The notes beneath the pieces are model-generated. The model searched no databases and had not been told where the DNA came from. It saw only the letters and a program-made list of their open reading frames with translations. Of a DNA stretch of 64,000 nucleotides, positions 9,535-63,046 are shown in pieces. Within the stretch, counting starts at the first letter, position 1; every line of letters begins with the position of its first letter. Source of the stretch: an uncultured Gammaproteobacteria bacterium (GTDB lineage Bacteria > Pseudomonadota > Gammaproteobacteria > GCA-001735895); NCBI GenBank assembly GCA_963768295.1, contig CAVYHN010000027.1, positions 127,009 through 191,008 on the forward strand. The letters are read 5' to 3'. A program made the position numbers and the translations under genes.

Positions 9535-9666
9535 AGGCTTTGCTATAGTTGATCATGTTAACGCATTGCTATAGCGAGCCCCCGATTATAATCAGTTTGT
9601 TAGCAACCGATAAGCAAAACCCGTCAAGAATTCTATAATACCTGTAAACCGATTTAAGGAAACTTC

Positions 9667-10701: not shown

Positions 10702-10732
10702 ACCAGCGATAAAAAGGTGCTAGGGGAGTCTA

Positions 10733-11902: not shown

Positions 11903-11922
11903 CCCTAGCCCGGAGAAGTAGA

Positions 11923-13527: not shown

Positions 13528-14208
13528 ATGAGGAGTAAGATGAAGCTTAAATCATTCTTGGTTGGTTATTGTTTATTTTTATACTCTGGCCAAACTTTGG
13601 CAGCATTAATAACGTACGACTATTCATTCGATACACCACAATTTAACGAAAACCCGTTTGGGCCGGTGAATGATTTACTCCAGCTTGCGGGGTCAACGAT
13701 AACTGGATCTATAACTCTGGATACAGACAATATTGGTGTTCGCAATCCGATAGGGACACGGACTTGGGATGGTTATGCGGTGAGTTCTGGAGGACTAACT
13801 CACAGTGGAGAACTAGACCTGGTCGGTTTCGATACTCAAGCTAGTGTAGCCTATACGCCATATCTCCCAGATAACCCGGGCACTATTCTTAATAGTATTT
13901 CGGGTTGGACTATCCAAGATAGTGATGAGATTCGATTCGATCTTACAATTGACTTCGAACAACTACGAGTTGCAGCACAGTGCTCGGACTTAAAACCAGA
14001 TCCCGATGATATTGGTGTATACGACGCTTGCATAGAAAATGGCAGTACTTATAACAGGAGTATTGCGAATTATCGACCATTAACGAACCTCAGTTTAGCT
14101 CAAGTTCCAGCATCCCCATCACCTGTCCCAGTACCAGCAGCTGTGTGGTTATTCGGTACAGCACTTATTGGATTAGTAGGATTTAGTAAGCGAAGAAAAT
14201 CTGCTTAA
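13528..14208 (+). CDS. Secreted protein with a VPLPA-CTERM (exosortase-type) sorting signal
   Basis: N-terminal signal peptide. C-terminus VPVPAAVWLFGTALIGLVGFSKRRKSA. Confidence 0.7.
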   Translation: MRSKMKLKSFLVGYCLFLYSGQTLAALITYDYSFDTPQFNENPFGPVNDLLQLAGSTITGSITLDTDNIGVRNPIGTRTWDGYAVSSGGLTHSGELDLVGFDTQASVAYTPYLPDNPGTILNSISGWTIQDSDEIRFDLTIDFEQLRVAAQCSDLKPDPDDIGVYDACIENGSTYNRSIANYRPLTNLSLAQVPASPSPVPVPAAVWLFGTALIGLVGFSKRRKSA

Positions 14209-16099: not shown

Positions 16100-16262
16100 A
16101 GCGTCTCTTGTTGGCCGATTCGAGAAGCCTGGGAGGCAGATTTCAGCGTCTCCTATTGAGAAAACTGACGCTCACACCTGATGAAGCAGCGGCGATCTAC
16201 GACCCACAACGGACCCTCAGCGTTCCAGCTTTGCCGCGTCCGGCTGCATGCGCTTGTTAGAG
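16100..16262 (+). repeat. Island repeat copy I2, complete (M1-M2-M3 plus the 3' attC-like unit 16204-16262)
   Basis: cttgttggccga...agcgtctcctattgagaaaactgacgct...cagcggcga...CCACAAC..gctgcatgcgcttGTTAGAG. The TTA of the terminal core is the stop codon of minus-strand gene 16257-16877. Confidence 0.7.
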
Positions 16263-16877
16263 TTTTTTGGAGCTATTGGCTCTCGCTGCATATAGGCCCA
16301 GTAATCCAGAGGCAAACAATACCAATGCCCCTGGAATGGGTACAGCGCTTATTGTTCCACTGACGTTGGATTCCAGATCGCCAAATTGTGTTAAAGCACC
16401 TTGAAGCGCTCCTACTCTCAATCGGTCAATAGTACTACTTAAGACTAGGTCAAAAAGCTCAGTCGTGCTTCCAGGAGGTAAAAAAGGATTTGTGCCAATG
16501 TCAAATACAATGCTGAAACTACCAGCTGTAATTCCGTCAATTGTTGGACCAGTTCCTGTAAACAATAAATTAAACCAACCCGCTGAATTGATCGTAGATA
16601 TTAAAGCATTTTCTGCAGTGAAGGCTTGCGCTCCGTAAGTACTATCAATCCAACTGAATGTGCCAGAAACACTGTCGATTGTTGATGTGCTAATGTTCCC
16701 ATTACCAATGTTGAATATGATGTCCGATGTGACCGTTGTTCCAATAGGTAACAAGTTTAAAGCCTGTGGAAGTCCACTGCTCATATCAGCTGAGGTGTTT
16801 ACTGACACCAATGCTGCATGGGAATTGGTTGCAATGACTAAAGTTATTGCTCCAAGTAATTTGACTAGTAGTTTCAT
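16257..16877 (-). CDS. Secreted protein with a PEP-CTERM/VPLPA-CTERM-like C-terminal sorting signal
   Basis: Signal peptide; C-terminus VPIPGALVLFASGLLGLYAARANSSKKL. The stop lies inside the repeat core, and GTTAGAG sits 38 nt upstream of the ATG. Confidence 0.6.
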   Translation of the reverse strand: MKLLVKLLGAITLVIATNSHAALVSVNTSADMSSGLPQALNLLPIGTTVTSDIIFNIGNGNISTSTIDSVSGTFSWIDSTYGAQAFTAENALISTINSAGWFNLLFTGTGPTIDGITAGSFSIVFDIGTNPFLPPGSTTELFDLVLSSTIDRLRVGALQGALTQFGDLESNVSGTISAVPIPGALVLFASGLLGLYAARANSSKKL

Positions 16878-42195: not shown

Positions 42196-43221
42196 TTAGT
42201 TAACAATTTTAATTTGCCATGGTACGTTAATTTCGAGCTTTTCGAAGAGTGAGCGACTCGCCAGAATTTCCCGCGACTGGCTGATAAGCAAAAAGTCCTC
42301 GATGTTTAAGGATAGTGCCAAATCCCCGCTTTTGCCCAGACCATCGATCATTAGAACCGTAGCCGCAACATCGGCGCGCACCGGGTCGCCGACAAGTACC
42401 GTGGCAGAACTCTGTCCGCGCGATGATTCGCCGGTACGCGGATCGATTATGTGATGCGTCAAGCGTTCGCCGCGTTGGTACTGGCGCCGGTAGTTTCCCG
42501 AGGTGAACAGGCTGTGGCTGCCGCTCAATTCCAGGCGGGCGATGATACCGGGCGCGAATGGATTTTGAATGCCGAGCCGCCAGGGGCGCCCGAAACGATT
42601 GCCCGCGATCTTCATGTCGCCGCCGGCATTGACGATGTAGTTCTCGATGCCCTGGCGATCGAGGAAATCGGCGATCAGACCGATCGCGTAACCCTTGGCA
42701 ATGCCGCCAAGATCGATTTGTAGTGCGGGATTGCTGCTGGTGGCGAGACCGGCGACGATTTTCAGATTCCGCATGCTGGGCAGGTCGCGTTTGAGCGCAG
42801 CGATTGCCGCGGCGTCGACCGCGCTGTCATGAAATCCGTAGGCGGCAATCAATTTGCCGAGTGCGGGATTGAACAGGCCACCGCTGGCATCGTGGTATTC
42901 GAGACTCAGTTGCAACAATTCGGCCAGGCTGTCCGGTACCCGCGCCTGCCCGTTGCGCTGTAATTCAGCGTTGAAGCGGGTTAAGTCGCTATCCTCCCAG
43001 GCATGCCACAGGCCGCGATAGTGACGCAGCCGAGACTCGATTTCACCAAGCAGTGACTCCGCCAGATGCAAATCTTCGGTGATCATCGTGATTTCGATAA
43101 TCGTGCCGAACTCGAGCAGGTGCTGCTCGACCAGGTGCTGTTTGCGTTCGCAAGCGCACAGCGCGATCGCCAACAAAAGCAGCCAGATGTTCCTTAAGCG
43201 GAAAGACGGCGCTCGATGCAC
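42196..43221 (-). CDS. apbE: FAD:protein FMN transferase ApbE (lipoprotein)
   Basis: Lipobox LCAC; GGIAKGYAIG motif. Confidence 0.85.
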   Translation of the reverse strand: MHRAPSFRLRNIWLLLLAIALCACERKQHLVEQHLLEFGTIIEITMITEDLHLAESLLGEIESRLRHYRGLWHAWEDSDLTRFNAELQRNGQARVPDSLAELLQLSLEYHDASGGLFNPALGKLIAAYGFHDSAVDAAAIAALKRDLPSMRNLKIVAGLATSSNPALQIDLGGIAKGYAIGLIADFLDRQGIENYIVNAGGDMKIAGNRFGRPWRLGIQNPFAPGIIARLELSGSHSLFTSGNYRRQYQRGERLTHHIIDPRTGESSRGQSSATVLVGDPVRADVAATVLMIDGLGKSGDLALSLNIEDFLLISQSREILASRSLFEKLEINVPWQIKIVN

Positions 43222-44150
43222 GTAAACAGGTCGGCGCTGATGTTGAGCCCGAAATCGCGATCGAGTTCGCGGATGCAGGTTGGACTGGTAACGTTAATTT
43301 CGGTGATGTAGTCACCAATGACGTCGATGCCGACAAACAAAAGGCCGCGCGCGCGCAGATCGTCACCGAGCTGGTCGCACAACCATTGGTCGCGTTCGCT
43401 AAGCGCCTGAGCGCGGGTGCTCGCGCCAGCCGCGATATTGCCGCGGTTTTCGCCGGCGGCGGGTAAACGCGCCAGCGCGTAGGGGATGGCGACGCCGTCG
43501 ATTAGCAGGATACGCTTGTCGCCTTCGCTGATCTCCGGAATGAAACGCTGCACCATGGTCTGGGATTTACCATGTTTGGAAACGGCTTCGATAATCGAAT
43601 TGGTGTTGGGGTCGCCGGCCTGGATGCGAAAAATCGACTGGCCGCCCATACCGTCCAGCGGCTTGACGATGACGTCTTTATGCTGGTTGATAAATTCCCT
43701 GATGATTTCCGGGCTTCGGCTGACCCGCGTCTCGACGCAACATTGGGGAAAGACGCGGGTGTAAAGCTTTTCATTACAATCTCGCAGGCTGGCCGGCCGG
43801 TTGACAACCAGTACCCCGTTCTCCTCCGCCTGTTCCAGGATGTAGGTGCAGTAGATGTATTCGAGATCGAACGGCGGGTCCTTACGCATCAGAATCGAGT
43901 CCAGTTCATCCAGGCGGCAGCGCCCCGTGGCGCCGTAATCGAACCAGTCTTCATTGTCGTCACGCAGGCTGAGTTTGCGAAATTGCCCCATGGCAACGCC
44001 ATTGTCGAGGAAGATATCGTCAAGCTGAAAGTAATAAATCTGCCAGCCACGCGCCTGCGCTTCCAGCATCATGGCCAGGCTTGAATCCTTCCAGGGTTTG
44101 ATGGCTTCGATTGGATCCATCACGATCCCGAGCTTGCGGTCTGTGGGCAT
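43194..44150 (-). CDS. gshB: Glutathione synthetase
   Basis: MPTDRKLGIVMDPIEAIKPWKDSS plus the ATP-grasp fold; 318 aa. Confidence 0.9.
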   Translation of the reverse strand: MPTDRKLGIVMDPIEAIKPWKDSSLAMMLEAQARGWQIYYFQLDDIFLDNGVAMGQFRKLSLRDDNEDWFDYGATGRCRLDELDSILMRKDPPFDLEYIYCTYILEQAEENGVLVVNRPASLRDCNEKLYTRVFPQCCVETRVSRSPEIIREFINQHKDVIVKPLDGMGGQSIFRIQAGDPNTNSIIEAVSKHGKSQTMVQRFIPEISEGDKRILLIDGVAIPYALARLPAAGENRGNIAAGASTRAQALSERDQWLCDQLGDDLRARGLLFVGIDVIGDYITEINVTSPTCIRELDRDFGLNISADLFTCIERRLSA

Positions 44151-44452
44151 AAAGGTAGTTTATTCGAGCGATGATTGCGGTTGTCCGAAGTTTACTGAAT
44201 TAAACCTGGCAAAAACATCAAAATATCCTTTATTCGGCAAGCTTTGCTGGTTGCATCTTCGGCTTGTTAAACCCGGTTTTATGAACTACTTTTGAAGGTG
44301 ATGGTTTTTCAAGATTTTGTCAGTGAAAATCGGATTCATATCGTAGAATCTACATCATATTGTTTAATTAAATGACTGGTTTTACTTGGAAATATCAATA
44401 TAATCTTGTCGTATAAAGTGGGGGATACCCACTGTTAATCCCCGGGGGTTAT

Positions 44453-44866
44453 GTGAACACCGAGTCTCAGATAGCAGAAGGAGCGCCGGAAATGGGCAAC
44501 CTGAACGTCAAGGTAATGGTTATTGACGACAGTAAGACCATCCGCCGCAGTGCTGAAACCCTGCTGAAAAAAGTGGGTTGCGAGGTTGTGACCGCGGTCG
44601 ACGGTTTCGAGGCGCTGGCCAAAATCGCCGAACATAAACCGGATATTATTTTCGTCGACATCATGATGCCGCGTCTGGATGGTTACCAGACCTGCGCCTT
44701 GATCAAGAACAATCAAACCTTCAAGGCGACGCCGGTCATCATGCTGTCCAGCAAGGATAGTATTTTCGATCGCGCGCGCGGCCGTATCGTAGGCTCCGAG
44801 AAATATCTAACCAAGCCCTTTTCGAAGGAAGACCTGATCAATGCAATCACCACGCATGTCGGCTAG
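44453..44866 (+). CDS. pilG: Twitching-motility response regulator PilG (CheY-like)
   Basis: VMVIDDSKTIRRSAETLLKKVGCEVVTAVDGFEALAKIAEHKPDIIFVDIMMPRLDGYQTCALIKNN is about 80% identical to PaPilG. Alternative start at 44492. Confidence 0.9.
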   Translation: MNTESQIAEGAPEMGNLNVKVMVIDDSKTIRRSAETLLKKVGCEVVTAVDGFEALAKIAEHKPDIIFVDIMMPRLDGYQTCALIKNNQTFKATPVIMLSSKDSIFDRARGRIVGSEKYLTKPFSKEDLINAITTHVG

Positions 44867-44902
44867 GCCTTAACGGTCAGCGAAAATAGAGGTAGTTCCC
44901 GA

Positions 44903-45298
44903 ATGACGCACATTTTAATTATTGATGACTCGCCTACCGAGGTGCATGTATTCAAAAACATGCTGATGAATAACGATATCGAAGTTTCGGTTGCCAAGAA
45001 TGGTGAAGAAGGCATCGAAAAAGCGATTGAAATGAAGCCCGATTGCATTTTGATGGATGTGGTAATGCCTGGCAAAAACGGCTTTCAGGCGACGCGCGAC
45101 CTGAGCCGGAATCCGGCGACTTCGTCAATACCGGTCATCATCATTACTACCAAGGATCAGGAAACCGACAAAATCTGGGGCATGCGCCAGGGCGCCAAGG
45201 ATTACATCGTCAAGCCAGCGGATGAACGCGACCTGATCATGCGCATTAACAAGGTGCTCGGTTCCGACCGCACACACGAAGACGGCGCGATCGATTAG
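44903..45298 (+). CDS. pilH: Response regulator PilH
   Basis: ILIIDDSPTE...PVIIITTKDQETDKIWGMRQGAKDYIVKP. Confidence 0.9.
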   Translation: MTHILIIDDSPTEVHVFKNMLMNNDIEVSVAKNGEEGIEKAIEMKPDCILMDVVMPGKNGFQATRDLSRNPATSSIPVIIITTKDQETDKIWGMRQGAKDYIVKPADERDLIMRINKVLGSDRTHEDGAID

Positions 45299-45300
45299 CA

Positions 45301-45834
45301 ATGCCCATTACCTCGCCATTTGAAATATTGAACAGGCTGGATCAGCGTTTTCGCAAAAACTCGAGCGGCTTGCCTGTGGCCAAGGCGGTGGTCGATGACT
45401 GGATCGGAATCGGTTTTGCGATTAATGACATTCCGTTGATCGCGAAAATGGACGATGTCAGTGAAATACTGCCGCCGCCCGAAACCATACGGGTACCGGG
45501 GGTCGCGCCCTGGGTCAAGGGGTTGGCAAATATTCGCGGCAGTTTGATGCCGGTCCTGGATATGAATGGTTATCTTTATGGAAAACCGACCAATATTCGC
45601 AAGGAAAGCAGGATATTGATCATCAATAAACTGGGTATTGTTGCCGGCCTGCTGGTTGATGAAGTTTATGGGTTACGACGTTTTAAACCCGAGGAGCATC
45701 AAAAACAAATCAAGCAGGACGCGGGTTCGGTGGGGGAGTATCTGGCCGGCACCTTCGTTGATCAGGTGCGACGCTGGAATGTTTTCAGTGTTGAAAAACT
45801 GGCCAGGACTGAGCAGTTCCTGAGAGTGGTTTAA
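45301..45834 (+). CDS. pilI: CheW-like coupling protein PilI
   Basis: CheW domain, located between pilH and pilJ. Confidence 0.8.
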   Translation: MPITSPFEILNRLDQRFRKNSSGLPVAKAVVDDWIGIGFAINDIPLIAKMDDVSEILPPPETIRVPGVAPWVKGLANIRGSLMPVLDMNGYLYGKPTNIRKESRILIINKLGIVAGLLVDEVYGLRRFKPEEHQKQIKQDAGSVGEYLAGTFVDQVRRWNVFSVEKLARTEQFLRVV

Positions 45835-45863
45835 ATGGCAGTTAGCTATGCATTGAGGAACCA

Positions 45864-48014
45864 ATGGCAGTATTAGACAAAGTAAAAAATTTGTTTCCGG
45901 CACGAGCATCAGGCGCAGGTTTATCGATTGCACAGGGCGGAGGCATGAACAAGAAGGTCGTTCTGGTCGGCGTCTTGCTGGTGATCGCGGTCCTGGCAAT
46001 GGTGTTGATGTTCGTCATCGAATCGGGACAGGCGCGCAAGAACAAACTTTATGCAGCCATTGCCTCGGAACAGCAGGTTATTTCTCAACAGATTGCGGTC
46101 AATGCACTAGAGGCCGCCGCCGGCCAGGAACAGGCATTCGATCGCCTGGCGACAAATCAGAATCGTTTTCTGGCCAATCTTGAAAAGTACAACAATGGCG
46201 CCCCGGGGCAGGATCTACCCCCCTTGCCGGTGCATTTTTCAGCGGAATTTTCGAACCTGAAAGCCATCTGGAGTGACTATGACAAGGATATCGCGACGGT
46301 CGTCGCGGCCAAGAACTCGATTGCCACGGTCAGTGATTATGTCACGCAAATCAATGAATCGCTGCCGGAATTGATATCGCTTTCCGATCGCGTGGTCGAT
46401 GAACTGGTCAATGCCAACGCGCCGCGAAAAAATATTGCCGTCGCCGCTCGACAGGTGATTCTGATCCGCGGTATCGAGCATAGCCTCAACCAGATACTGA
46501 CTGACGGCGAAGTGGTCATGGCGGCGGCGGATCGTTTCGCTACCGATGCCACCAAGGTGGAAACGCAATTGCTGGCGATGCTCGAAGGTAACGCTGAGCT
46601 CGGGATTAGCAAGTTCACCGGCACTGCCGTGATCGGCAACCTGCTGCAATTTGCCGACCTTTACTCGGTCGTGCGTAAGAACGTGCGTGAGATTCTCGAT
46701 AATTCAGCGCAAATTTTCAAAGTGCACGAGGCGGCGTTGAATATCGATCAATTGAGCCCGCTGATACTGTCCTCCGCCAGCGATCTGATCGTGGCCATCG
46801 AGCGCAACGATGCCGAGGGTAATGTCTTTAACCTGATCGGTTATTTACTAGGGGCCGCTGCAATGCTGCTGCTGGTATGGCTGATCTTTCTCATTTCGAG
46901 CGAATCGAAGAAAAGCCTGGCGGAATCCCAGGAGCAAAACGAAAAAAACCAGCGCGCGATCCTGCGCCTGCTCGATGAGATGACCAATCTGGCGGATGGT
47001 GACCTGTCGACGCATACCACGGTAACGGAAGACATCACCGGCGCGATCGCCGACTCGGTGAACTACTCCATCGACGCCTTGCGTGATCTGGTCAGCACCA
47101 TTAACAACACCGCAAACCAGGTTCGCGGCGCGGTGCGCAAAACCCAGAACATGACCGGCGAACTCGCCGAGGCCAGTGACGCCCAGGCGCGCCAGATAAC
47201 CGCGGCCAGTAGCGCCGTCACAGAAATTTCCAAGTCGATGTCACAGGTCTCCGAGCGCGCCGCCGACTCGGCCGAGGTGGCGCGAAAATCGGTAAGTATT
47301 GCGCACAAGGGGGGTGAAACGGTACGCCAGACCATCGACGGCATGGAAACCATACGCGAGCAGATCCAGGAGACCTCCAAGCGGATCAAGCGACTGGGTG
47401 AATCGTCCCAGGAAATCGGGGATATCGTAAACCTGATTACTGAGATATCCGATCAAACCAACATTCTCGCCCTCAACGCGGCGATACAGGCGTCGATGGC
47501 GGGCGAGGCTGGTCGCGGTTTCGCAGTGGTCGCGGACGAGGTGCAGCGACTCGCGGAAAGAACCGGTGATGCGACCAAGCAGATAGAGACGCTGGTTAAG
47601 GCCATCCAGGCGGATACCAACGAAGCCACGGTTTCGATGGAGCAGAGCACCGCCAACGTGGTCAAGGGTGCCAAGCTGACCGAAAACGCGGGTAGCGCGC
47701 TCGATCGAATCGAGCAGGTTTCGATGAACCTGGCGCAACGCATTCTGGAGATTTCCGACGCCACGCGGGACCAGGCCCAGGACAGTGTGCAAATCACCGA
47801 GACCATGGATGTGATTCAGGAAATCACCGCCAAAACTTCCGAAGGCTCGGAGCAGGCTTCCTCGGCGATCGGCGAACTATCGGACATGGTAAAAGATATG
47901 CAGACCTCGGTGGCGGGCTTCAAGCTGCCGGGTGTCAGCTCGGTCGAAAGCACCATGGTGCAGGATCCCGATGACCTGGCCGCGCTGGGCCTGGGCGCCG
48001 AGGCGGCGAAATAG
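45864..48014 (+). CDS. pilJ: Methyl-accepting chemotaxis protein PilJ
   Basis: The C-terminal 400 aa are nearly colinear with PaPilJ ([18 protein letters not shown]...[17 protein letters not shown]). Confidence 0.9.
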
Positions 48015-48022
48015 GTCAATCG

Positions 48023-48790
48023 ATGACTCCTCAGGAAACCTCGATAAAACACAGTGCGCTTGGGTGGGTCAAGAAATCCATCGATGACAACCTGTCCGAG
48101 ATCAAGACCGATCTCAAGCTTTATATCGAAGAGGGCGACGAGGCTTTACTGGAGCGGGTCAAGGAGCGGCTAGGCGTCATCCAGGGCGTGTTGATGATGA
48201 TCGAGCAATACGGCGCGGCGATGCTAACCGAGGAAATGGTCGCGCTGGTCGATTTTATCACCGAGAACAAACAGGAGCAGAGCGAACCGGCGCTGGAAGT
48301 CATGCTGCGCGCGGTACTGCAATTGCCCGATTATCTCGAGCATATCCAGTCGGGGCATCGCGATATCCCAATGGCAATCCTGCCTCTGTTGAACGATATC
48401 CGCGCGGTCAGAAACCAGGATCTGTTTTCCGAGAAGCTACTGTTTCTGCCCGATTTGTCGATGCACCAGGATGGCGCCGAGATTCAGGCGATCGACAAGG
48501 ATCAGAATCAGGCCTCCAAACTGCTGGCCAGGAAGCTGCGGCCGGTGTATCAACTGGCGCTGGTCAATGTGATCAATGGAACAATCGGTCGAGGAAAGCC
48601 TCAAGCGCCTGGAAAAAGTATGCGAAACCCTGGAAGAGCGCTCCTTTTCCGAGCAGATTGCCCGTATCTGGTGGATTGTCGGCGCCTTGATCGAATCGGT
48701 TTCACGCCAGCAGCTGGAACTCGGGGTGTCGATAAAAAGCCTGTTGGGCAAGGTGGACGCGCTGTTTCGAGTCATCCTGATCATCGGTGA
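48023..48790 (+). CDS. chpA: N-terminal FimL/ChpA-like segment. Either a separate ORF or the 5' part of chpA split by a +1 frame change near 48573-48600.
   Basis: Frame-2 ORF LGWVKKSIDDNLSEIKTDLKLYIEEGDEALLERVKE... Its last 70 codons overlap the chpA frame and look non-native. Confidence 0.5.
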   Translation: MTPQETSIKHSALGWVKKSIDDNLSEIKTDLKLYIEEGDEALLERVKERLGVIQGVLMMIEQYGAAMLTEEMVALVDFITENKQEQSEPALEVMLRAVLQLPDYLEHIQSGHRDIPMAILPLLNDIRAVRNQDLFSEKLLFLPDLSMHQDGAEIQAIDKDQNQASKLLARKLRPVYQLALVNVINGTIGRGKPQAPGKSMRNPGRALLFRADCPYLVDCRRLDRIGFTPAAGTRGVDKKPVGQGGRAVSSHPDHR

Positions 48791-51700
48791 ACGCGGTTTA
48801 CTGCAGCGTCAACCGGTTGAGCTAATCAAGAATTTTCTGTATTACATCGCCCAGCCGGAATGCGATGGGCCCAAGACCCAGGCGATCAAGACCGCTTATC
48901 GACTGGAGCAGTTCCTGCCTTCCGAATCGGCACGTAGCGAAGTGCTGGATAATATCGCTGGACCGAACCAGGCCCTGTTAAAAACGGTCGCCGAAGCGAT
49001 GAAAGCCGACATCGAGTCGGTCAAATCCACCCTCGAGGTATACGTCAACGGGGATTTGTCCAGGGTCAGCGCGTTGAAGGATCTGCCGGGGGAAATGCAT
49101 ATCATTTCCGACACCCTGGCCATGATCGGGCTCGGCTCGCAGCGGCAGCTGATAGAAGCTCAGATTGAAGTCGTCAAGAACATCGTCGGAGGCAATAGCC
49201 CTGCCGAAGAAGAGCAGCTGCTATCGATGGCTGGCGAATTGTTGCAGGTGGAGCAGTCGCTCGACCAGATGCAGAAGCGGCAGCCGCTAAGCGCGAGCCA
49301 ACCGAAATCGGAAAGCGACGTGTCGCGCGACTATGAACTGGACAGCGTGCTCAGCGCGGTCGTCACCGCCACCCTCGACGATATCCAGAAAACCAAGAAC
49401 GCAATCCTCGAGTTCATAAAAGATCCGAGCCGCGGTGAAAATATCGATCTCTGCATCAGCTTGATGAGCGAATCGCGGGGTGCGCTGGAGCTGCTCGGCG
49501 AGCAGCGAGCGGTCGCCGTGGTTGAGGGGTTACTGACCTATTTAAGGGGTTACGACATTGTTGCCTTCATGGACTCCAGTCGGCTGGATGCGCTGTCTCA
49601 GGCCGTTGTCAGCCTGGAGTACTACCTCGAAGCGCTGGGCGAGCGCCGCAGCGACGCCAGCAGCATTCTTGATTTTGCCGACGTTCAGCTGCAGGAGCTG
49701 CTGGCAAGCATGCCCGCCGAGCCGGTAGCGGAGGCCGCCGGGGAACCGGTTGTGGTCGACGATCAATCCACGACACCTGAATCGCCGGCGGTAGCCGGCG
49801 TCGCACCAGCGCCGGAAGATAACGCTGGCGCCAGCGTTGCCGAATCCCCCGCCGCGGTCGTAGCGGAACTCGCGGTGGATGCCGACGCCGTGGAGTTGGA
49901 GTATGAAGCAGATGAAACCATAATAAACGAATACGGCCCTGAAACCGCGCCCGCGGCGGACGGGTCGTTAGCGCAGAACTCGGCCGCCGCGCAACCGGCA
50001 GATACCAATTTCGACGCAGAGCCGGAAGCAATTCATGCGTCTCCCGAAGACGCCCGTGACTCGTCTGAAGTCGAGTCGCGCGAGCCGATCACAACCGACG
50101 CAGTCGAGACGCTTAAGCCGGCGGCGGAAAACCAGCTTAAGATCGTGCCGATCGATGATGAGGCAGTGGTTTTAAAGCCTGGCAGCGATCCCGAGATTCT
50201 CGAAATTTATCTCGAGGAGGCCGAGGAAGAATCGCAGAATATCGCGCGCCTGCAGCAGGACTGGCTGTTACATCCCGAAGATGAAAACGCGGTAAAGAAT
50301 ATCCGCCGGGCTTTTCATACCATCAAGGGTAGCGGGCGACTGGTGGGCGCGATGAAAATCGGTGAGTTTGCCTGGGACTTCGAGCAATTGCTGAATCGGC
50401 TTATTGACCGGACCATTCCTCCCAGCAAGCAGATTATCGATGCGGTCGGTGAAGCGGCCCGGGTATTGCCTGAGCTGGTGACCGAATTGAAGACATCGGT
50501 TGCGCCGCAGGCGGATGTCAACTATCTGCGGGGACTGGCGCGTGCCCTGGCGGAGTTCAAGGCCGAACAGCTGATGATCGATCATACGCAGCGGCGAGCG
50601 CTGGTGGAATCACCCGATGATCGAATTACCGATGGCGATGAAACCGAGTGGAAAGGCATGGGTGTCGGTGCGACCACGCAGATAATTCCCCCTGACAAAC
50701 TAACCGCCGCACTGCTCGAGGAAATCGAGCCTGACACCATGCGCGTCGATCGGGATGCTTTCGAGACCGTCAAGGCGCAGGCCGAGCAGTCGGGCGCCGG
50801 CAAAGAGCCCGATTTCGATGATACGCTGCTGGCGCAGCCGCCGGAAATCCCGCGCGCCGGGGAAATGCGCGAAGCCTCGGAGACGGCGAACTTCACGGTT
50901 GCCGATTTTGAGTTTGACGAGTCGTCAGTGGAGTACACGCAGGCGATCGATTATGCGCACAGACCAGACGAGGAAAACGAGGTCGAGTTTGAGAAAATCG
51001 ATGCCGTGCAACTCGAGTCGGTTGAAGCGGACGCCGATGAAGCGATCAAGATAGAAACCATCGGCGAGGATTTCCTCGGTGATGACTTCGACGATTCGGC
51101 GGACGATGAAATATCGATCGAAGCGGTGCAGACGCCGCCGGCTACCGAGCCTGAAGCTGAGGCTGAGGCTGAGGTCGCCGCAAGCGCCGAGGTCGAGGCC
51201 GATATCCCGATGATCGAAGTTGTCGAGCCGGAAGTCGAAGAGCTGGTAGCGGATACCCCTTTTGCCGAAGCCGAAGCCGAAGCCGAAGTTGAAGCCGAAG
51301 TTGAAGCCGAAGTTGAAGCCGAAGTTGAAGCCGAAGTTGAAGCCGAAGTTGAAGCCGAAGTTGAAGCCGAAGCCGAAGTTGCAGCCGCGACAGAAACGGC
51401 TGACTCGTCACCGGAGCTGGTGGAACTGACCGAGGTTGAAGAAATTGTCATGCAGGCGCCCGAAACCGAGATCGCGGGCATGACGCTCGAGGCCAACGAT
51501 CTCGAAGCTTCCGCAGATGATGCATCGGCGTCGGCAGCGCCCGCGGCCGAGAGTTTGCGGGATGAGGCTACGCCGGCGGATGCCCCCGACCAGGCATCTG
51601 AGCAGGAGACCCCCCCCGACCCTTTAGTGGATATGACAGGGAGCCAGGTGCCTGGAGAAGAGGTAGAGGCAGGCGAGTCCAGGGTCCAAGAGCCGGCCGC

Positions 51701-54503
51701 AGCAACCGGCCTGTCGTTCGATCCGGAGTTGCTGATAATTTATCAACAAGAAGTAGAACAGCACCTAAGCATAGTAAGTTCCGCCCTTGATCATGCCGAG
51801 CAGATCAAGGAGCTAATCCCTGGCGAAGAAATTTACCGCGCCCTGCACACCATTCATGGCGCCTCGCGCACCGCGGATATCGCGACCATCGGCGAACTTT
51901 CCGGCTTGATGGAAAAGCCCCTGAAGACTGCTGTTGCGCAGAAGATGGCGCTCGATCACGAAATCGTAGCGCTGTACCGGCAGGGTCAGCACGCGCTGCA
52001 AAGCATGACCGATGCACTGGTCGCGACCCGGCAGCTACCCGAAATTCCCGAAGATCTGGGCATCAGTTTCAAGGCCCTGGCGGAAGATTTCGAAGAGCAC
52101 ACTGTCGAAATTTCCGAGGAGGAAGCCGAGCCAACCGGCGAGTTTGTCGATACGCTGACGATGATGAACGAAGCGGTCGATGCGGAACAGGATAACGAGC
52201 TGCTAACGATCTTTGTCGACGAAGCCAACGAATTGCTGGAGATGAGCGACAATACGCTGCACGAATGGGCGCAGCAGCGGACCGATGATTCGGGCGCGAT
52301 GGATTACAACGCGGTGATGGAATTGCAACGCTATCTGCATACGCTGAAGGGCGGCGCGCGCATGGCGGAAATCAACGAGATCAGCGATCTCTCGCATGAA
52401 ATGGAATCGATGTTTATCGCGGTAATCGATGGGCGGGTCGACAAGAACGATAACCTGATCGAACTACTCAAGGATTGCTTCGACCTGTTGCATCAGCAGG
52501 TCGTCGAAGCCCAGCAGGGCGAGAGCCTGAGCGATTCCTCGGCCCTGGTGCAACTGCTCAAAATTCTGCGCCGAGGTGAAGCTGAGGATAGTTCGGCCGA
52601 AGGTAGCGAAATGGGCATCGATGTGGACAGCGAAGACATCGATATTGTTAGCGAAAACCTTCCCGGAGAACCGCTGTCAGGCGCGGAACGGCCATCCCAG
52701 GACGTCATCAAGGTACGCTCCGATTTGCTCGATAACCTGGTAAATTCGGCCGGCGAAGTCAGTATCTACCGCGCGCGCATGGAACAGCAGGTCGCCGGTC
52801 TGGGCTCTCATCTGGGTGAGCTCGGGCAAACCATTTCGCGCCTCAAGGTTCAACTGCGTAGCCTCGAGGCCGAAACCGACGCGCAGATCCATTTCAGTCA
52901 TCGCGCCGAAGCCGGTAGATCGGAATTCGATCCCCTGGAGATGGACCGCTACACGATGATACAGGAGCTGTCGCGTTCGCTGAGTGAATCGGTCAACGAC
53001 TTATCCAGTCTGCAGGGTTTGCTGGGTGAGCAGGTCAAGGATTCGGAAACCCTGCTGTTGCAACAATCGCGTGTCAATACCGACCTGCAGGACGGCCTGA
53101 TCAAGAGCCGCATGGTGAAGTTTTCGGGCCTGTTGTCGCGCCTGCGTCGACTGGTGCGGCAGAGTAGCCAGGAACTCGGCAAGAAAGCCGAGCTGGTCAT
53201 TACCGGTGAGGAAAATGAAGTCGATAACAAGGTGCTCGACCGCATGGTCGCGCCGCTTGAGCATATTATCCGTAACGCCCTGTCGCACGGTATTGAAACC
53301 CCGGTTGAGCGGGTCAAGAAAGGCAAGCCGGAAACCGGCAGGATCGCGATAGATATCACCCGTGACGGCTCCGAAGTCGTGATTCGCGTTAGCGACGACG
53401 GTGCAGGCGTCAATATCGAAAAGGTTCGCAGCCGGGCGGTCCAGCTCGGGCTGCTGGAAAAGAGTCACAACCTCAGCGAGTCCGACCTGGTGCAGTATAT
53501 TCTCGAGCCCGGGTTCAGCACCGCGGATCATGTTACCCAGCTGTCCGGGCGAGGCGTGGGTATGGACGTGGTCGATATTGAAGTCAAGCAGCTGAGCGGC
53601 ACCCTGCAGATCGAGACCACTCCAAGGGGCACCACTTTTGTCGCGCGCCTGCCGTTCACCTTATCGATCAACCAGGCTATCCTGGTGCGTACCGGCGATG
53701 AAACCTACGCCATTCCCCTGATTAATATCGAAGGTATCACGCGGCTGGATACCGAGAGCTTGCTCGAGTATTACCGCCAGGAGGCGCCCGAACTCGAATA
53801 CGCCGGTCAGCGCTTCGCCCTGCATAACCTGGCGAAACTGGTAGACACGGGAGTCCAGTTCCGGGCCGGTGGCGAAGTCGACAAGCAACCGGTTATCCTC
53901 AGTCGCGCGGGCGATGTTCGGATCGCCCTGCATGTCGATGAAATCATCGGTAACCGCGAGATCGTCGTAAAAACACTCGGCAAGCAGCTGAGCCAGATCA
54001 AGGGTCTCGCCGGTGCGAGCATCCTCGCCGACGGCAGCGTGGTACTGATTCTGGATATCAATGGCCTGATTCGACAAAGCGCCGCCAACGCGGTCAAGGT
54101 GGTTTACCAGTCGGACACGGACGGTCTCGCGCAAGCCCGCAATACCGTCATGGTGGTCGACGACTCGATCACGATGCGTCGCGTCGCCAGTAAACTGCTG
54201 GAACGACATAACTATGAAGTGGTAACCGCCAAGGATGGAGTCGATGCGCTGGCACAGTTACAGGACGTCCGGCCCGACGTGATGCTGCTGGATATCGAAA
54301 TGCCGCGCATGGATGGATTCGAGCTGGCAACACATATGCAAAACGAGGAAACCTATTCCGCAATTCCAATCATCATGATCACCTCGCGTACCGGAGAAAA
54401 ACACCGCGATCGCGCCCTGGAGATCGGCGTCGCCAATTACATGGGCAAGCCGTACCAGGAAGACGAGCTGATCGAGAATATCCAGAGCGCGCTGGGCAGG
54501 TAG
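48576..54503 (+). CDS. chpA: ChpA/PilL hybrid histidine kinase: multiple Hpt domains, an acidic low-complexity linker, CheA-like HATPase and CheW domains, and a C-terminal receiver
   Basis: 1975 aa; Hpt motifs (RAFHTIKGSGRLVG, HTIHGASRTA, LHTLKGGARMA); C-terminal VMVVDDSITMRRV...LLDIEMPRMDG receiver. Confidence 0.85.
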   Translation: MEQSVEESLKRLEKVCETLEERSFSEQIARIWWIVGALIESVSRQQLELGVSIKSLLGKVDALFRVILIIGERGLLQRQPVELIKNFLYYIAQPECDGPKTQAIKTAYRLEQFLPSESARSEVLDNIAGPNQALLKTVAEAMKADIESVKSTLEVYVNGDLSRVSALKDLPGEMHIISDTLAMIGLGSQRQLIEAQIEVVKNIVGGNSPAEEEQLLSMAGELLQVEQSLDQMQKRQPLSASQPKSESDVSRDYELDSVLSAVVTATLDDIQKTKNAILEFIKDPSRGENIDLCISLMSESRGALELLGEQRAVAVVEGLLTYLRGYDIVAFMDSSRLDALSQAVVSLEYYLEALGERRSDASSILDFADVQLQELLASMPAEPVAEAAGEPVVVDDQSTTPESPAVAGVAPAPEDNAGASVAESPAAVVAELAVDADAVELEYEADETIINEYGPETAPAADGSLAQNSAAAQPADTNFDAEPEAIHASPEDARDSSEVESREPITTDAVETLKPAAENQLKIVPIDDEAVVLKPGSDPEILEIYLEEAEEESQNIARLQQDWLLHPEDENAVKNIRRAFHTIKGSGRLVGAMKIGEFAWDFEQLLNRLIDRTIPPSKQIIDAVGEAARVLPELVTELKTSVAPQADVNYLRGLARALAEFKAEQLMIDHTQRRALVESPDDRITDGDETEWKGMGVGATTQIIPPDKLTAALLEEIEPDTMRVDRDAFETVKAQAEQSGAGKEPDFDDTLLAQPPEIPRAGEMREASETANFTVADFEFDESSVEYTQAIDYAHRPDEENEVEFEKIDAVQLESVEADADEAIKIETIGEDFLGDDFDDSADDEISIEAVQTPPATEPEAEAEAEVAASAEVEADIPMIEVVEPEVEELVADTPFAEAEAEAEVEAEVEAEVEAEVEAEVEAEVEAEVEAEAEVAAATETADSSPELVELTEVEEIVMQAPETEIAGMTLEANDLEASADDASASAAPAAESLRDEATPADAPDQASEQETPPDPLVDMTGSQVPGEEVEAGESRVQEPAAATGLSFDPELLIIYQQEVEQHLSIVSSALDHAEQIKELIPGEEIYRALHTIHGASRTADIATIGELSGLMEKPLKTAVAQKMALDHEIVALYRQGQHALQSMTDALVATRQLPEIPEDLGISFKALAEDFEEHTVEISEEEAEPTGEFVDTLTMMNEAVDAEQDNELLTIFVDEANELLEMSDNTLHEWAQQRTDDSGAMDYNAVMELQRYLHTLKGGARMAEINEISDLSHEMESMFIAVIDGRVDKNDNLIELLKDCFDLLHQQVVEAQQGESLSDSSALVQLLKILRRGEAEDSSAEGSEMGIDVDSEDIDIVSENLPGEPLSGAERPSQDVIKVRSDLLDNLVNSAGEVSIYRARMEQQVAGLGSHLGELGQTISRLKVQLRSLEAETDAQIHFSHRAEAGRSEFDPLEMDRYTMIQELSRSLSESVNDLSSLQGLLGEQVKDSETLLLQQSRVNTDLQDGLIKSRMVKFSGLLSRLRRLVRQSSQELGKKAELVITGEENEVDNKVLDRMVAPLEHIIRNALSHGIETPVERVKKGKPETGRIAIDITRDGSEVVIRVSDDGAGVNIEKVRSRAVQLGLLEKSHNLSESDLVQYILEPGFSTADHVTQLSGRGVGMDVVDIEVKQLSGTLQIETTPRGTTFVARLPFTLSINQAILVRTGDETYAIPLINIEGITRLDTESLLEYYRQEAPELEYAGQRFALHNLAKLVDTGVQFRAGGEVDKQPVILSRAGDVRIALHVDEIIGNREIVVKTLGKQLSQIKGLAGASILADGSVVLILDINGLIRQSAANAVKVVYQSDTDGLAQARNTVMVVDDSITMRRVASKLLERHNYEVVTAKDGVDALAQLQDVRPDVMLLDIEMPRMDGFELATHMQNEETYSAIPIIMITSRTGEKHRDRALEIGVANYMGKPYQEDELIENIQSALGR
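51264..51381 (+). repeat. In-frame 12-bp tandem repeat (gccgaagttgaa x about 7, flanked by gccgaa hexamers) inside chpA, encoding (EAEV)n
   Basis: Visible directly in the sequence. It produces artefactual antisense ORFs rich in STSA and RLQL. Confidence 0.9.
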
Positions 54504-54512
54504 CGCTAAGCC

Positions 54513-54992
54513 ATGAATGATAAAGCCACCTCGGTTCGCTGCATGCTGCTGCAATTGACTTCGCTGAACCTGTTGATCCCAAACTCGGCGGTGGCTGAAA
54601 TTATTGGTTACTCGACGCCGCGCCGCCTGCCTGATACCAGCGACTGGTTTTCCGGCGTCGTATTGTGGCGCGGGGTTTATGTGCCCGTGGTTGTGGTCGA
54701 GCAAATGTGCAATATAAGTGCCGCCCAGGTGGGCCCGCGCGCGCGCATTGCCATCGTATACAATCCGGAAAAGGATCCGGATTTACCCTATATCGGAGTT
54801 CACATGCAGGATATTCCGCGCGCTTACCTCGCCGAGGCTGAAAGCATGGAGTCGGGCAGTGACGAGAATCTCAGCCCCTACCTGATAACGCGAGTCGATG
54901 ACGAGCAGCTGGCGCGAGTCATTCCCGATATGGACAGGATCATTACCGACCTCAAGCTCGAGTTTAACCAGAGCCGTATCGAAGAGCTCTGA
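54513..54992 (+). CDS. chpC: CheW-like protein (ChpC-like)
   Basis: 159 aa with a CheW-fold pattern, immediately downstream of chpA. Confidence 0.6.
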   Translation: MNDKATSVRCMLLQLTSLNLLIPNSAVAEIIGYSTPRRLPDTSDWFSGVVLWRGVYVPVVVVEQMCNISAAQVGPRARIAIVYNPEKDPDLPYIGVHMQDIPRAYLAEAESMESGSDENLSPYLITRVDDEQLARVIPDMDRIITDLKLEFNQSRIEEL

Positions 54993-55033
54993 CCCCCTCG
55001 AAGGGACCTGGGAGCTTTCCACAAGCCGACTAT

Positions 55034-55765
55034 CTAATCCAGATCTCCCAGAGCAGACTGAACAATGGCCAACGCCGCGGTCGCGGCGGTTTCGAAACGC
55101 AGTACGCGGCTACCGAGGCTGATCGGTTGAAATCCCGAGTCGCGGGCGAAGTCGATCTCCTGCGGATGCAATCCCCCTTCGGGGCCTAGCAGTATCGATA
55201 CGGAGGATTGAGAGGCTCGCAATACCGATGCCAGCGGTTTGCCGTCGAAATCGAGCAGCAGTTTGAGTGAGTCGGGAGCAGCGTCAAGTGCCTGTTCGAG
55301 CCTTGTGTTGAACATAATTTCAGGAATGATAGCGCGGCCGCACTGCTCGCAGGCGCTAACCGCCACGCCTCGCCAGTGCGCCAGTTTTCTGTCGAGCTGC
55401 GCCGGTTTCAAAGGGGACTGGGTGCGTTCGGCGTTGAACAGCGAAATTCTGCTGGCGCCGAGTTCGGTCGTTTTCTGGATCATCCAGTCGGTATGGTCGC
55501 TACGCCCGAGGCCCTGGATAATAACGCTTGCGAGCGCCGATTCGGTGCTTAGCGTCTGTGCCGCGCCGATTTCGGCCATGAGCCGTTTGCCATCGACCAG
55601 CAGACGGGCTTCGAAATCGACGCAAGCCCGGCCATTAAATAAAAAAAAGGCTGCGCCTGGTTTCAGGCGCAGCACATTTTTCAGGTAATGGCCCTGAGCC
55701 TTGTCGAGGGCTATGACCTGCCCACCGACAAGCTCGGCGTCGATGTATACGCGGGAGATCCGCAT
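55034..55765 (-). CDS. rsmE: 16S rRNA (uracil1498-N3)-methyltransferase RsmE
   Basis: MRISRVY... and a C-terminal SPOUT fold LGPEGG. Confidence 0.85.
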   Translation of the reverse strand: MRISRVYIDAELVGGQVIALDKAQGHYLKNVLRLKPGAAFFLFNGRACVDFEARLLVDGKRLMAEIGAAQTLSTESALASVIIQGLGRSDHTDWMIQKTTELGASRISLFNAERTQSPLKPAQLDRKLAHWRGVAVSACEQCGRAIIPEIMFNTRLEQALDAAPDSLKLLLDFDGKPLASVLRASQSSVSILLGPEGGLHPQEIDFARDSGFQPISLGSRVLRFETAATAALAIVQSALGDLD

Positions 55766-58809: not shown

Positions 58810-60810
58810 ATGTCATCTCGTAAAACGCTAGCCAATGCGATTCGGGCGCTCGCCATGGATGCCGTGCAAAAGGCCAATTCCGGCCATCCAGGGGCCCCAA
58901 TGGGTATGGCCGATATCGCTGAAGTCCTTTATAACGACTTCATGCGCCATAACCCGGCAAACCCGGAATGGTGCGATCGCGATCGCTTCGTCATGTCGAA
59001 CGGGCATGGATCGATGTTGCCTTATTCGGTACTGCACCTGAGCGGTTACGAGGTCACTATCGAAGATCTGAAGAATTTTCGCCAGCTGCATTCGAAGACG
59101 CCGGGGCATCCCGAACACGGCTATGCGCCGGGTATCGAAACCACCACCGGGCCGCTGGGGCAGGGGATCGCCAACGCCGTCGGCATGGCGATCGCCGAGC
59201 GCGCGCTGGCCGCCGAATTCAATCGCGATAAATTCAATATCGTCGATCACTTTACCTATGTTTTCCTGGGCGATGGCTGCCTGATGGAGGGCATTTCACA
59301 TGAAGCCGGCTCGCTCGCGGGAACCCTTGGGCTCGGCAAGCTAATCGCATTCTGGGACGATAACGGTATCTCGATCGACGGCAAGGTGGAAGGCTGGTTT
59401 CTCGACGATACCCCGAAGCGCTTCGAGGCCTACGGCTGGCACGTGGTCGAGGTCGATGGCCATAACCCAGATGAAATCAAGATTGCGATCGAGGCGGCAC
59501 GCGCGATTACCGCCAAACCTTCGCTGATCTGTTGCAAGACCATTATTGGTTTTGGCGCGCCCAACAAGGCCGGCGGGCACGCCTGTCATGGCGCTCCGCT
59601 GGGCGAGGACGAGGTCGCGCTTGCGCGCATCGAACTGAACTGGGAGCACGCGGCTTTCGTGGTGCCGGACGAGGTTTACCAGGGTTGGGACCATCGTGAA
59701 AAGGGACGGCTCCAGGAAGAGGCCTGGGAGCAGAAGTTTACCGACTACCAGGCCGAGCACCCGGAACTGGCCGCCGAATTCGAGCGCCGCAGCCAGCGCG
59801 AGTTGCCGGAAAACTGGGAAGAGGCGGCGCAGGCTTTTATCGCCGAGGTCGACGAGGCCGCCGAAACCAGGGCCACGCGCCAGGCTTCACTGGCGGCCAT
59901 CGAGGCCTATTCGCCGCTATTGCCGGAGCTGTTCGGTGGTTCCGCGGACCTGGGTTGTTCCAACCTTACCGAGTGGTCCGGTTTCAAACCGATGCGCGCC
60001 GAATCACCGGACGCCAACTACATCAATTACGGGGTGCGCGAATTCGGCATGTCGGCGATGCTCAACGGTATCGTGCTGCATGGCGGCTTCATCCCCTTCG
60101 GCGCCACCTTCCTGGTGTTTTCCGAATACGCGCGTAACGCGCTGCGCATGGCCGCGCTGATGAAAATTCAAAGCATCTTCGTCTATACCCATGACTCGAT
60201 CGGGCTGGGCGAAGACGGGCCAACCCACCAGGCGGTGGAACAGATTCCGACGCTGCGCATGATTCCGAATATGCATCTGTGGCGCCCCTGCGATACGGTC
60301 GAAACCGCGGTTAGCTGGAAGGCTGCTATCGAACGCCGCGACGGGCCGACCTGCCTGGTGTTTTCGCGCCAGGGTCTGAAGCACCAGGCGCGCAGCCCGG
60401 AACAGATTGCAGCCATCGCGCGCGGCGGCTATATCCTGCGTGACTGCGAGGGCACGCCCGATGTCATTATCATCGCCACCGGTTCGGAAGTGGAGCTGGC
60501 GCTGGCCGCCTGCGAGTCGGAAGCGCTCGAAAATCAGAACATCCGCCTGGTATCCATGCCCAGCACCTCGGTGTTCGACCGGCAACCGCAGGAGTACCGC
60601 GACGAGGTGTTGCCGCCTGGCGTGAGCGCCCGCATCGCGGTCGAAGCCGCGGTCACTGGGGGCTGGTACAAGTATGTCGGATCCGACGGTATCGTCATCG
60701 GCATCGATACCTTTGGCGAGTCGGCGCCGGCCAAGGAATTATTCGCCTATTTCGGTTTCACTGTCGGCAAGGTGGTGGAAGCGGTCAACGGTCTTTTAGG
60801 AATAGATTAA
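58810..60810 (+). CDS. tkt: Transketolase
   Basis: 666 aa; ThDP motif [14 protein letters not shown]. Confidence 0.95.
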
Positions 60811-60817
60811 TTTTTAA

Positions 60818-61831
<1,014 letters not shown>

Positions 61832-61846
61832 GCTGAGACTAGCGTT

Positions 61847-63046
61847 ATGCCTGTACTGGAAATGACCGGCCTCGATCTGGCCGGCAAAAGGGTATTGATC
61901 CGCCAGGACCTGAACGTCCCGGTAAAGGATGGCGTCGTCACCAGCGATCAACGCATCAAGGCTTCGCTGCCGGCGATCCGGCAATGTATCGCTGCCGGCG
62001 CGCGGCTGATGATCATGTCGCATCTCGGCCGTCCCGAAGAGGGTAAGCCGGAGGCGCAGTTTTCGCTGCAGCCGGTTGCCGATTATCTCTCCGCAGCGCT
62101 CGGCAAGGCTGTGCCGCTGATCAGCGATTACCTCGAGCAGGCGCCCGCCATGGCTGACGGTGACGTGGTGCTGCTCGAGAACGTGCGCTTCAATCCGGGT
62201 GAAAAAACCAACGACGAAGACCTGTCGCGGCGCTATGCCGCACTCTGCGATATTTACGTCATGGATGCCTTCGGCACCGCGCATCGCGCCCAGGCTTCGA
62301 CGCATGGCGCCGGCCAGTATGCGCCGCTTGCCTGCGCCGGACCGCTGCTGGCGGCTGAACTCGATGCGCTTGGCAAGGCCCTGAACCAGCCGCGCAGCCC
62401 CGTGGTCGCCATCGTCGGCGGCTCCAAGGTATCGACCAAGCTGACCGTGCTCGAGGCCCTTTCCGGCATCGTCGACCAGTTGATTCCCGGCGGCGGTATC
62501 GCCAACACCTTCATCGCGGCCGCGGGCTATAACGTCGGCAAGTCGCTGGTCGAAGCGGACCTGATCCCCGAGGCCAGGCGGCTGGTGGAGCAGGCGCGCG
62601 CCAGGGGCGGCGATATCCCGATTCCGACCGACGTCGTTTGTGGCAAGGAGTTTTCGGAATCTGCGATCGCAACGGTGAAACCGGTATCCGAGGTCGAGGA
62701 CGATGACATGATCTTCGATATCGGCCCCGAGACCGCGGCGCATTTTGCCACGCTCCTGCAACAGGCGGCGACTATCGTCTGGAACGGTCCGGTCGGCGTG
62801 TTTGAATTCGACCAGTTCGGTAACGGTACCCGGGTGCTGGCCGAGGCGATTGCGGCCTCGCCGGCGTTCTCGATTGCCGGCGGGGGTGATACACTGGCCG
62901 CCCTCGACAAGTACGGCATAGCGCAACAGGTTTCGTATATATCCACCGGCGGTGGTGCTTTTCTCGAGTTCCTGGAAGGTAAAAAACTACCGGCAGTAGC
63001 CATGCTGGAACAAAGGTACTCAGACTATGAGAGCGGTTCTACGTAG
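61847..63046 (+). CDS. pgk: Phosphoglycerate kinase
   Basis: [17 protein letters not shown]. Confidence 0.95.

Follow-up and report, generated by a model that had tools for sequence, protein, structure and literature searches.

The window analysed here, by which we mean the whole 64-kb stretch of DNA, carries a pil-chp cluster of standard type, as read from its open reading frames (ORFs) and their Pfam matches. On the minus strand lies gshB, the customary left border of such clusters, and on the plus strand follow pilG, pilH, pilI, pilJ, chpA and chpC; further 3' of chpC are rsmE, ahcY, metK and tkt. The genes pilG, pilH, pilI, pilJ and chpC are all intact in the window, and the database record of the pilJ product bears the name 'twitching motility protein PilJ'. 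The genes around chpA are as follows.

43194..44150, minus strand: gshB, glutathione synthetase, divergent from pilG (Pfam GSH-S_N and GSH-S_ATP; position kept in all relatives)
44317..44344, plus strand: sigma-70-like promoter match upstream of pilG (consensus scan; weak evidence)
44453..44866, plus strand: pilG, CheY-type receiver (Pfam Response_reg 6e-29; 85-97% identity and same order in relatives)
44903..45298, plus strand: pilH, CheY-type receiver (Pfam Response_reg 9e-28; conserved in relatives)
45301..45834, plus strand: pilI, CheW-type coupling protein (Pfam CheW 6e-24; conserved in relatives)
45864..48014, plus strand: pilJ, chemoreceptor with PilJ N-terminal and MCP signalling domains (Pfam MCPsignal 1e-41, PilJ 1e-6)
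54513..54992, plus strand: chpC-like second CheW gene, 9 nt past chpA (Pfam CheW 2e-12; conserved in relatives)

Apart from the match upstream of pilG, the consensus scan returned no sigma-70-like match on the plus strand of the cluster, and nothing near the frameshift and new ATG described below. Several observations were made elsewhere in the window. Three consecutive PilT/PilU-type ATPase genes lie at 9667-13089 on the plus strand (344, 389 and 388 aa, all with Pfam T2SSE and all intact); such genes usually come as a pilT-pilU pair, which makes the third paralog extra. An 824-aa protein encoded at 3195-5669 on the minus strand combines eukaryote-type Ser/Thr kinase, HDOD and GAF domains, which is an unusual fusion. 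Two proteins of about 210-225 aa, encoded at 13528-14208 (plus strand) and 16257-16877 (minus strand), have a signal peptide and no Pfam match; at the C-terminus both show the motif VP.P.A..LF..GL.GL and then basic residues, a pattern similar to sorting signals of the PEP-CTERM type. Coding density in the 13-27 kb region is below that of the rest of the window. A 713-aa ORF at 60785-62926 on the minus strand, without Pfam match and antisense to gap (60836-61831) and pgk (61847-63046), is almost certainly spurious and not a gene.

Two overlapping ORFs occupy the place of chpA. The upstream one (ORF1) begins with an ATG 8 nt past the end of pilJ (48014) and runs in frame 2 from 48023 to 48790, encoding 255 aa. 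The downstream one (ORF2) runs in frame 0 from 48576 to 54503, encodes 1975 aa and overlaps ORF1 by 215 nt. This layout, including a TGA at 48570 that closes frame 0, had been described correctly in the initial annotation. The features within the two ORFs are given below.

48023..48576, plus strand: chpA 5' segment in frame 2, codons 1-184 and the first two bases of the ancestral Lys-185 codon (homologous to intact ChpA N-termini up to ...LALVNVI)
48570..48572, plus strand: TGA closing frame 0 just upstream of the shift (sequence)
48576..48578, plus strand: ATG opening the 1975-aa ORF, which exists only through the inserted T (ancestral AAG-GAA becomes A-ATG-GAA)
48577, plus strand: extra T, the lesion (ATCAA[T]GGAACAA), outside any homopolymer (missing in 17 of 17 aligned relatives)
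48578..48790, plus strand: out-of-frame tail of the upstream ORF, 71 codons (GTIGRGKPQAPG...; no database match)
48579..54503, plus strand: chpA 3' segment in frame 0, with the remaining FimL-like region, acidic linkers, Hpt, kinase core, CheW and receiver (Pfam; collinear with intact relatives)
51267..51372, plus strand: 12-nt tandem repeat GAAGCCGAAGTT, 8.8 copies, encoding EAEV in a chpA acidic linker (the alignment with the nearest relative, L002, breaks here)
52197-52496, 52701-52865 and 53253-53660, plus strand: best Hpt match, dimerisation domain and HATPase_c of chpA, respectively (Pfam)
53673-54077 and 54147-54482, plus strand: C-terminal CheW domain and receiver of chpA, respectively (Pfam)

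Pfam detects in ORF2 Hpt (1e-31, in 3 stretches), H-kinase_dim, HATPase_c (2e-15), CheW (2e-17) and a C-terminal Response_reg (7e-27), while ORF1 matches no Pfam or NCBIfam family (the Pfam copy predates the FimL models). The long ORF is ChpA, as follows from its domain content, its position and the N-terminal homology: it has the CheA-type core and C-terminal receiver, the gene stands directly downstream of pilG-pilH-pilI-pilJ, in an order also found in 30+ relatives, and its N-terminal region is FimL-like. It lacks the single uninterrupted frame of a usual chpA, for which the extra T at 48577 is the sole reason. In order to relate the two ORFs to each other, we fused ORF1 (residues 1-185) with ORF2 (residue 2 onwards) and compared this query with a large protein collection. 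It was covered over 100% of its length by proteins 80-90% identical, and the homologs aligned without a gap through the junction (...LALVNVIKEQSVEESLKRLEKVCE... and ...KKLRPIYQLALVNVIKEQSVEESLKRLEKVCETLEERS...). When both frames were aligned to orthologs, as the initial annotation had proposed, frame 2 was conserved to codon 184 and frame 0 thereafter. The DNA at 48578-48790 thus encodes conserved ChpA sequence in frame 0 and the tail in the frame of ORF1, and this tail, the last 71 codons of ORF1 (peptide GTIGRGKPQAPGK...), had no match among 5.8 billion proteins. Deleting the T at 48577 yields one ORF that encodes a ChpA of 2159 aa. Because the homology crosses the frames without a gap, the relatives have both parts in one frame, and the tail is matchless, the two ORFs are, on the sequence comparison, one chpA with a 1-nt insertion and not two genes.

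The comparison with relatives placed the lesion exactly. A scan of species-representative genomes gave 38 related loci, all from uncultured Gammaproteobacteria and including the Olavius algarvensis Gamma 3 endosymbiont (L004). Both parts of chpA stand in the same frame, one codon apart, in each of the 34 related loci that span the site, and over the 281-nt junction stretch every relative is exactly one base shorter than the window. The window reads GTGATCAA-T-GGAACAATCG (ATCAATGGAACAA); in the DNA alignment the T was absent from all 17 aligned relatives, which read ATCAAGGA or a synonymous variant of it. The nearest relative, L002 (94% DNA identity overall and 97.5% locally), reads ATCAAGGAACAA without the T. 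A single intact chpA ORF of 1868-2269 aa was present in 27 of the 33 relatives that were assessed over the full gene. Across the 19 kb aligned with L002, conserved coding sequence has no isolated indel other than the T at 48577; the remaining gaps are intergenic or in a hypervariable linker, and no second lesion was found in the other 5.9 kb of chpA. The +1 shift that the initial annotation had required for a single chpA, somewhere within 48573-48600, is therefore this one base. It had also considered that a missing base might restore one ORF, whereas the difference proved to be an extra base in the window, and its suggestion that orthologs might share the two-ORF arrangement was answered in the negative by the same 34 loci and 27 intact genes.

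Independent copies of the junction were sought as well. A metagenome scan for the junction, with or without the extra base, returned no match, and neither did a scan for its conserved right flank. Exact look-ups of the two chpA ORF products found neither on record, and look-ups of PilJ and ChpC led only to metagenome contigs of 2247 nt and 922 nt, neither of which reaches the junction. One contig (L001; JGI metagenome 3300036713, Ga0316200_0089116) is 100% identical to window positions 45805-48051 over 2247 nt and ends 526 nt before the extra T; another (L040; ENA contig ERZ27251032) is 98.6% identical over 917 nt, corresponding to window positions 54386-55302. This near-identity indicates that other public data sets also contain this strain or one very close to it.

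The linkers of ChpA differ in length and sequence among the relatives, with the domains conserved; besides the tandem repeat, a second linker stretch (window 49793-49934) is unalignable with the 94%-identical L002. The chpA gene is interrupted in 6 of the 33 related assemblies (L003, L004, L008, L017, L019 and L035), all of the breaks being at least 711 codons into the gene and within acidic or repetitive linkers. Among these, L004 is the scaffold of the Olavius algarvensis Gamma 3 symbiont, L003, a metagenome-assembled genome deposited as a chromosome, has a 100-N gap at the chpA break, and L017 shows several frame changes in chpA.

We then considered where in the protein the shift falls. The N-terminal 563 aa of Pseudomonas aeruginosa ChpA have a homolog in FimL, a protein with two Hpt-like domains (PMC3019171). 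The FimL-like region of ChpA here is about 600 aa long and the shift, at codon 185, lies inside it; the initial annotation was right that chpA is split, but it had placed the split after the FimL-like N-terminal domain. The families PF26379 (FimL_2nd) and PF27543 (FimL_C) are carried by the homologs 80-90% identical over the joined N-terminus, and were assigned on these homologs. A structure model of an intact, 89%-identical homolog (mean pLDDT 79.8, pTM 0.75) has a first helical bundle at residues 3-129, a linker at 130-158 and a second bundle that begins with helices 159-184 and 189-206. The pLDDT of the second bundle exceeds 90, and codon 185 is modelled in the loop between its helices 1 and 2. 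On this model the chpA 5' segment takes in the whole first Hpt-like bundle, the linker and, of the second bundle, helix 1. Taken one at a time, the bundles match CheA P1/Hpt domains in superposition (1tqg, TM 0.88 on the target; 1i5n, 0.73); the whole three-bundle model gave poor E-values in Foldseek, and only the per-domain CheA P1/Hpt matches were informative. According to the model, the shift is a cut through a domain and not at a domain border. A PDB sequence search also paired the linker after the first bundle (window 48359-48535, ChpA residues 113-171) with staphylococcal protein A (LPDLSMHQDGAEIQAIDKDQNQASKLLA); this match was weak and repeat-driven with domain E-values >1, and we rejected it as most likely due to chance.

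Substitutions relative to L002 gave dN/dS values of 0.06 for codons 1-184, 0.12 for codons 186-600, 0.31 for the linkers and 0.09 for the kinase core, which shows that chpA has been under strong purifying selection. Parsimony branch counts of synonymous and non-synonymous changes were 50 and 28 for the window and 59 and 26 for L002, and relaxed selection on the window branch was not detected by these counts, which are small numbers. Purifying selection together with no further damage means that, unless the T is an artefact of assembly, it was inserted very recently.

Two related marine lineages (L041-L045; ENA/TARA/JGI marine contigs) showed a different state of the same region. Their flanks are as in the window, with pyrC-pyrB-pyrR-ruvX-algH-tonB-apbE-gshB-gshA on one side and rsmE-metK-tkt-pgk on the other, and the slot between them (compare window 44453-54992) holds only a 55-aa C-terminal remnant of PilJ and the first ~600 aa of chpA; lost are pilG, pilH, pilI and chpC, the kinase part of chpA and the greater part of pilJ. 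The FimL-like gene lies at 9001-10803 or 9001-10947, and its products P0036 (600 aa) and P0049 (648 aa) are about 53% identical to the N-terminus of the window's ChpA and match Pfam FimL_2nd and FimL_C. Since this remnant is intact in both lineages, with a dN/dS of 0.27 at a dS of 0.59, it appears to be kept by selection. The N-terminus of ChpA thus seems to persist as a separate FimL-like gene in the sister lineage, cut near residue 600 and not 185.

The reading we prefer, though narrowly and at about even odds, is that a single chpA was broken by a lineage-specific T that arose very recently by mutation and is really present in the population that was sequenced. The gene would then be one usual chpA of the Pil-Chp type whose frame is broken at 48577, and the break would not be a designed feature. 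The other reading to which we give considerable weight, a little short of an even chance, is that the T is a sequencing, consensus-calling or assembly error and the organism has an intact 2159-aa chpA. The T allele is unique among the 34 loci, and neither the metagenome scans nor the protein collection yielded an independent sequence with the T. An error would account equally well for the strong purifying selection and for a 6.5-kb gene with no other flaw, and the remaining genes for control and retraction of the pili are undamaged. Like all the relatives, the source probably is a metagenome-assembled genome, a kind of assembly in which consensus indels occur. The breaks in 6 of the 33 relatives' assemblies also suggest that this long gene is prone to assembly trouble, but those breaks are confined to the repetitive acidic linkers far downstream, and none is in unique conserved sequence. 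We lean towards a real T because AA[T]GG is not a homopolymer, the usual place of indel errors, and because no other indel shifts the frame in the 19 kb that can be compared with L002. The other large ORFs of the window look intact, so that consensus quality is high, which again leans to a real T. Products of the neighbouring genes are on record from the 212,605-nt source contig and those of the two chpA ORFs are not, which would fit a pseudogene call by the annotator. The authentic frameshift and the sequencing error proposed in the initial annotation are thus both retained, while its programmed or tolerated split has the evidence against it.

Such a split, either a programmed +1 frameshift or two polypeptides consisting of a small N-terminal Hpt-like one and ChpA minus its first 185 residues, is very improbable. 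It could appeal to the insertion making an in-frame ATG exactly at the shift, to ORF2 keeping all Pfam-detected Hpt and catalytic domains, to the Shine-Dalgarno pairing of the native chpA start being weak as well (-3.1 kcal/mol, against -2.2 for the new ATG), and to the sister lineage, in which an N-terminal part of ChpA persists, encoded on its own and under purifying selection. However, the shift occurs in 0 of the 34 related loci, and nothing is therefore conserved by selection. The site, GUG AUC AAU GGA ACA, has no slippery/stop shift site or +1 re-pairing, the upstream frame continues for 71 codons, and no A or T run would allow transcriptional slippage; on these grounds we rejected both programmed frameshifting and transcriptional slippage. 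In addition, the cut is predicted to fall inside a well-packed helical bundle, no promoter-like site is nearby, and the natural stand-alone piece ends near residue 600 and not 185. A special case of a real insertion, which we regard as very improbable, is a gene fission at birth, with the new ATG giving ChpA without its first bundle alongside a free 184-residue Hpt-like fragment. Survival of the fragment is plausible in that case because L041-L045 keep only the FimL-like piece of chpA, and the fission would be a first step to a separate FimL-like protein, visible in a natural population. The ORF picture taken alone would indicate a small FimL-like gene and, after it, chpA, both genuine and each with an evolution of its own. 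We consider the chance of this reading practically nil and the reading already refuted, as the homology crosses the frames without losing one residue, no match was found for the 71 codons at the end of ORF1, the FimL-like residues in ORF1 number only 184 out of ~600, and no relative has the arrangement.

Returning to a real insertion in a single chpA, translation from the native start would give 184 correct residues, then 71 junk codons and a stop at 48790. Synthesis of the kinase part, with the Pfam-detected Hpt domains, the kinase core, CheW and the receiver, would depend on ribosomes starting at the ATG that the insertion happens to create, and use of this ATG at 48576 would yield ChpA minus its first 185 residues with all Pfam-detected Hpt and catalytic domains. 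Compared with the Shine-Dalgarno values of the new and native starts given above, most genes of the window have pairing of -4 to -9 kcal/mol. The weak Shine-Dalgarno pairing, the location of the ATG inside a translated stretch and the lack of a promoter nearby together argue that the new ATG would be used inefficiently. If the T is real, we expect little or no ChpA output and, in consequence, little or no control of the pili by way of PilG and PilH.

The initial annotation had also reported the absence of pilK and chpB from the cluster, and this was borne out. The spacers between pilJ and chpA (8 nt) and between chpA and chpC (9 nt) contain neither gene, and Pfam detected no CheR or CheB domain in ORFs of at least 150 aa in the 64-kb window. 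In the relatives the two junctions are equally tight (10-40 nt), and pilK and chpB are absent there too. Their absence is an older, clade-wide trait unconnected with the frameshift. PilJ of P. aeruginosa is methylated by PilK, and ChpB removes the methyl groups (PMC12129077). The P. aeruginosa-type arrangement, with pilK between pilJ and chpA and chpB after chpA, is not the one found here, and it is reasonable to describe this cluster, at the scope of the cluster, as having no dedicated adaptation enzymes.

For annotation, the locus should be entered as a single chpA, frameshifted at 48577, and not as a small FimL-like gene followed by a shortened chpA. A frameshifted gene or an assembly indel is of a well-known kind and is not a new gene arrangement. 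If the T is real, the strain has probably lost or weakened its Pil-Chp control of type IV pili with the machinery kept, which would be a minor matter concerning one strain. A whole group of uncultured marine Gammaproteobacteria, the Olavius algarvensis Gamma 3 symbiont among them, stably lacks pilK and chpB in this cluster; it is a further clade to set beside those already known whose pil-chp clusters have no adaptation enzymes of their own.

Among known systems, genes with a prfB-type programmed +1 frameshift likewise need a +1 shift for the full protein; the present case differs in having no conserved shift site, in-frame stop, slow codon, ortholog conservation or upstream Shine-Dalgarno stimulator, so that both conservation among orthologs (0 of 34) and a shift-prone site are lacking. 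ORF1 encodes the start of the same Hpt-like helical module as FimL, the stand-alone paralog of the ChpA N-terminus (PMC3019171). FimL, however, has about 560 residues and two complete Hpt-like domains, whereas ORF1 has 184 homologous residues, ends in the second domain and carries a junk tail; it is not a stand-alone FimL of ~560-650 aa with both Hpt-like domains, FimL_C and no kinase fusion. The gene as a whole resembles P. aeruginosa ChpA (PilL in Xylella) in its gshB / pilG-pilH-pilI-pilJ-...-chpA-...-chpC setting and in its FimL-like N-terminus, several Hpt domains with acidic linkers, CheA-type core, CheW and C-terminal receiver (PMC3019171; PMC12632253). It differs by the 1-nt insertion at codon 185, by its repaired length of 2159 aa compared to 2477 aa, by only three Hpt stretches being detected by Pfam, and by the missing flanking pilK and chpB. 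In this last respect it is like the cluster of Ralstonia solanacearum, which consists of pilG, pilH, pilI, pilJ and chpA only and has no CheR- or CheB-type gene (PMC7056806), so that the arrangement is a known cluster variant; unlike Ralstonia, which is without it, the window's clade keeps the second CheW gene, chpC.
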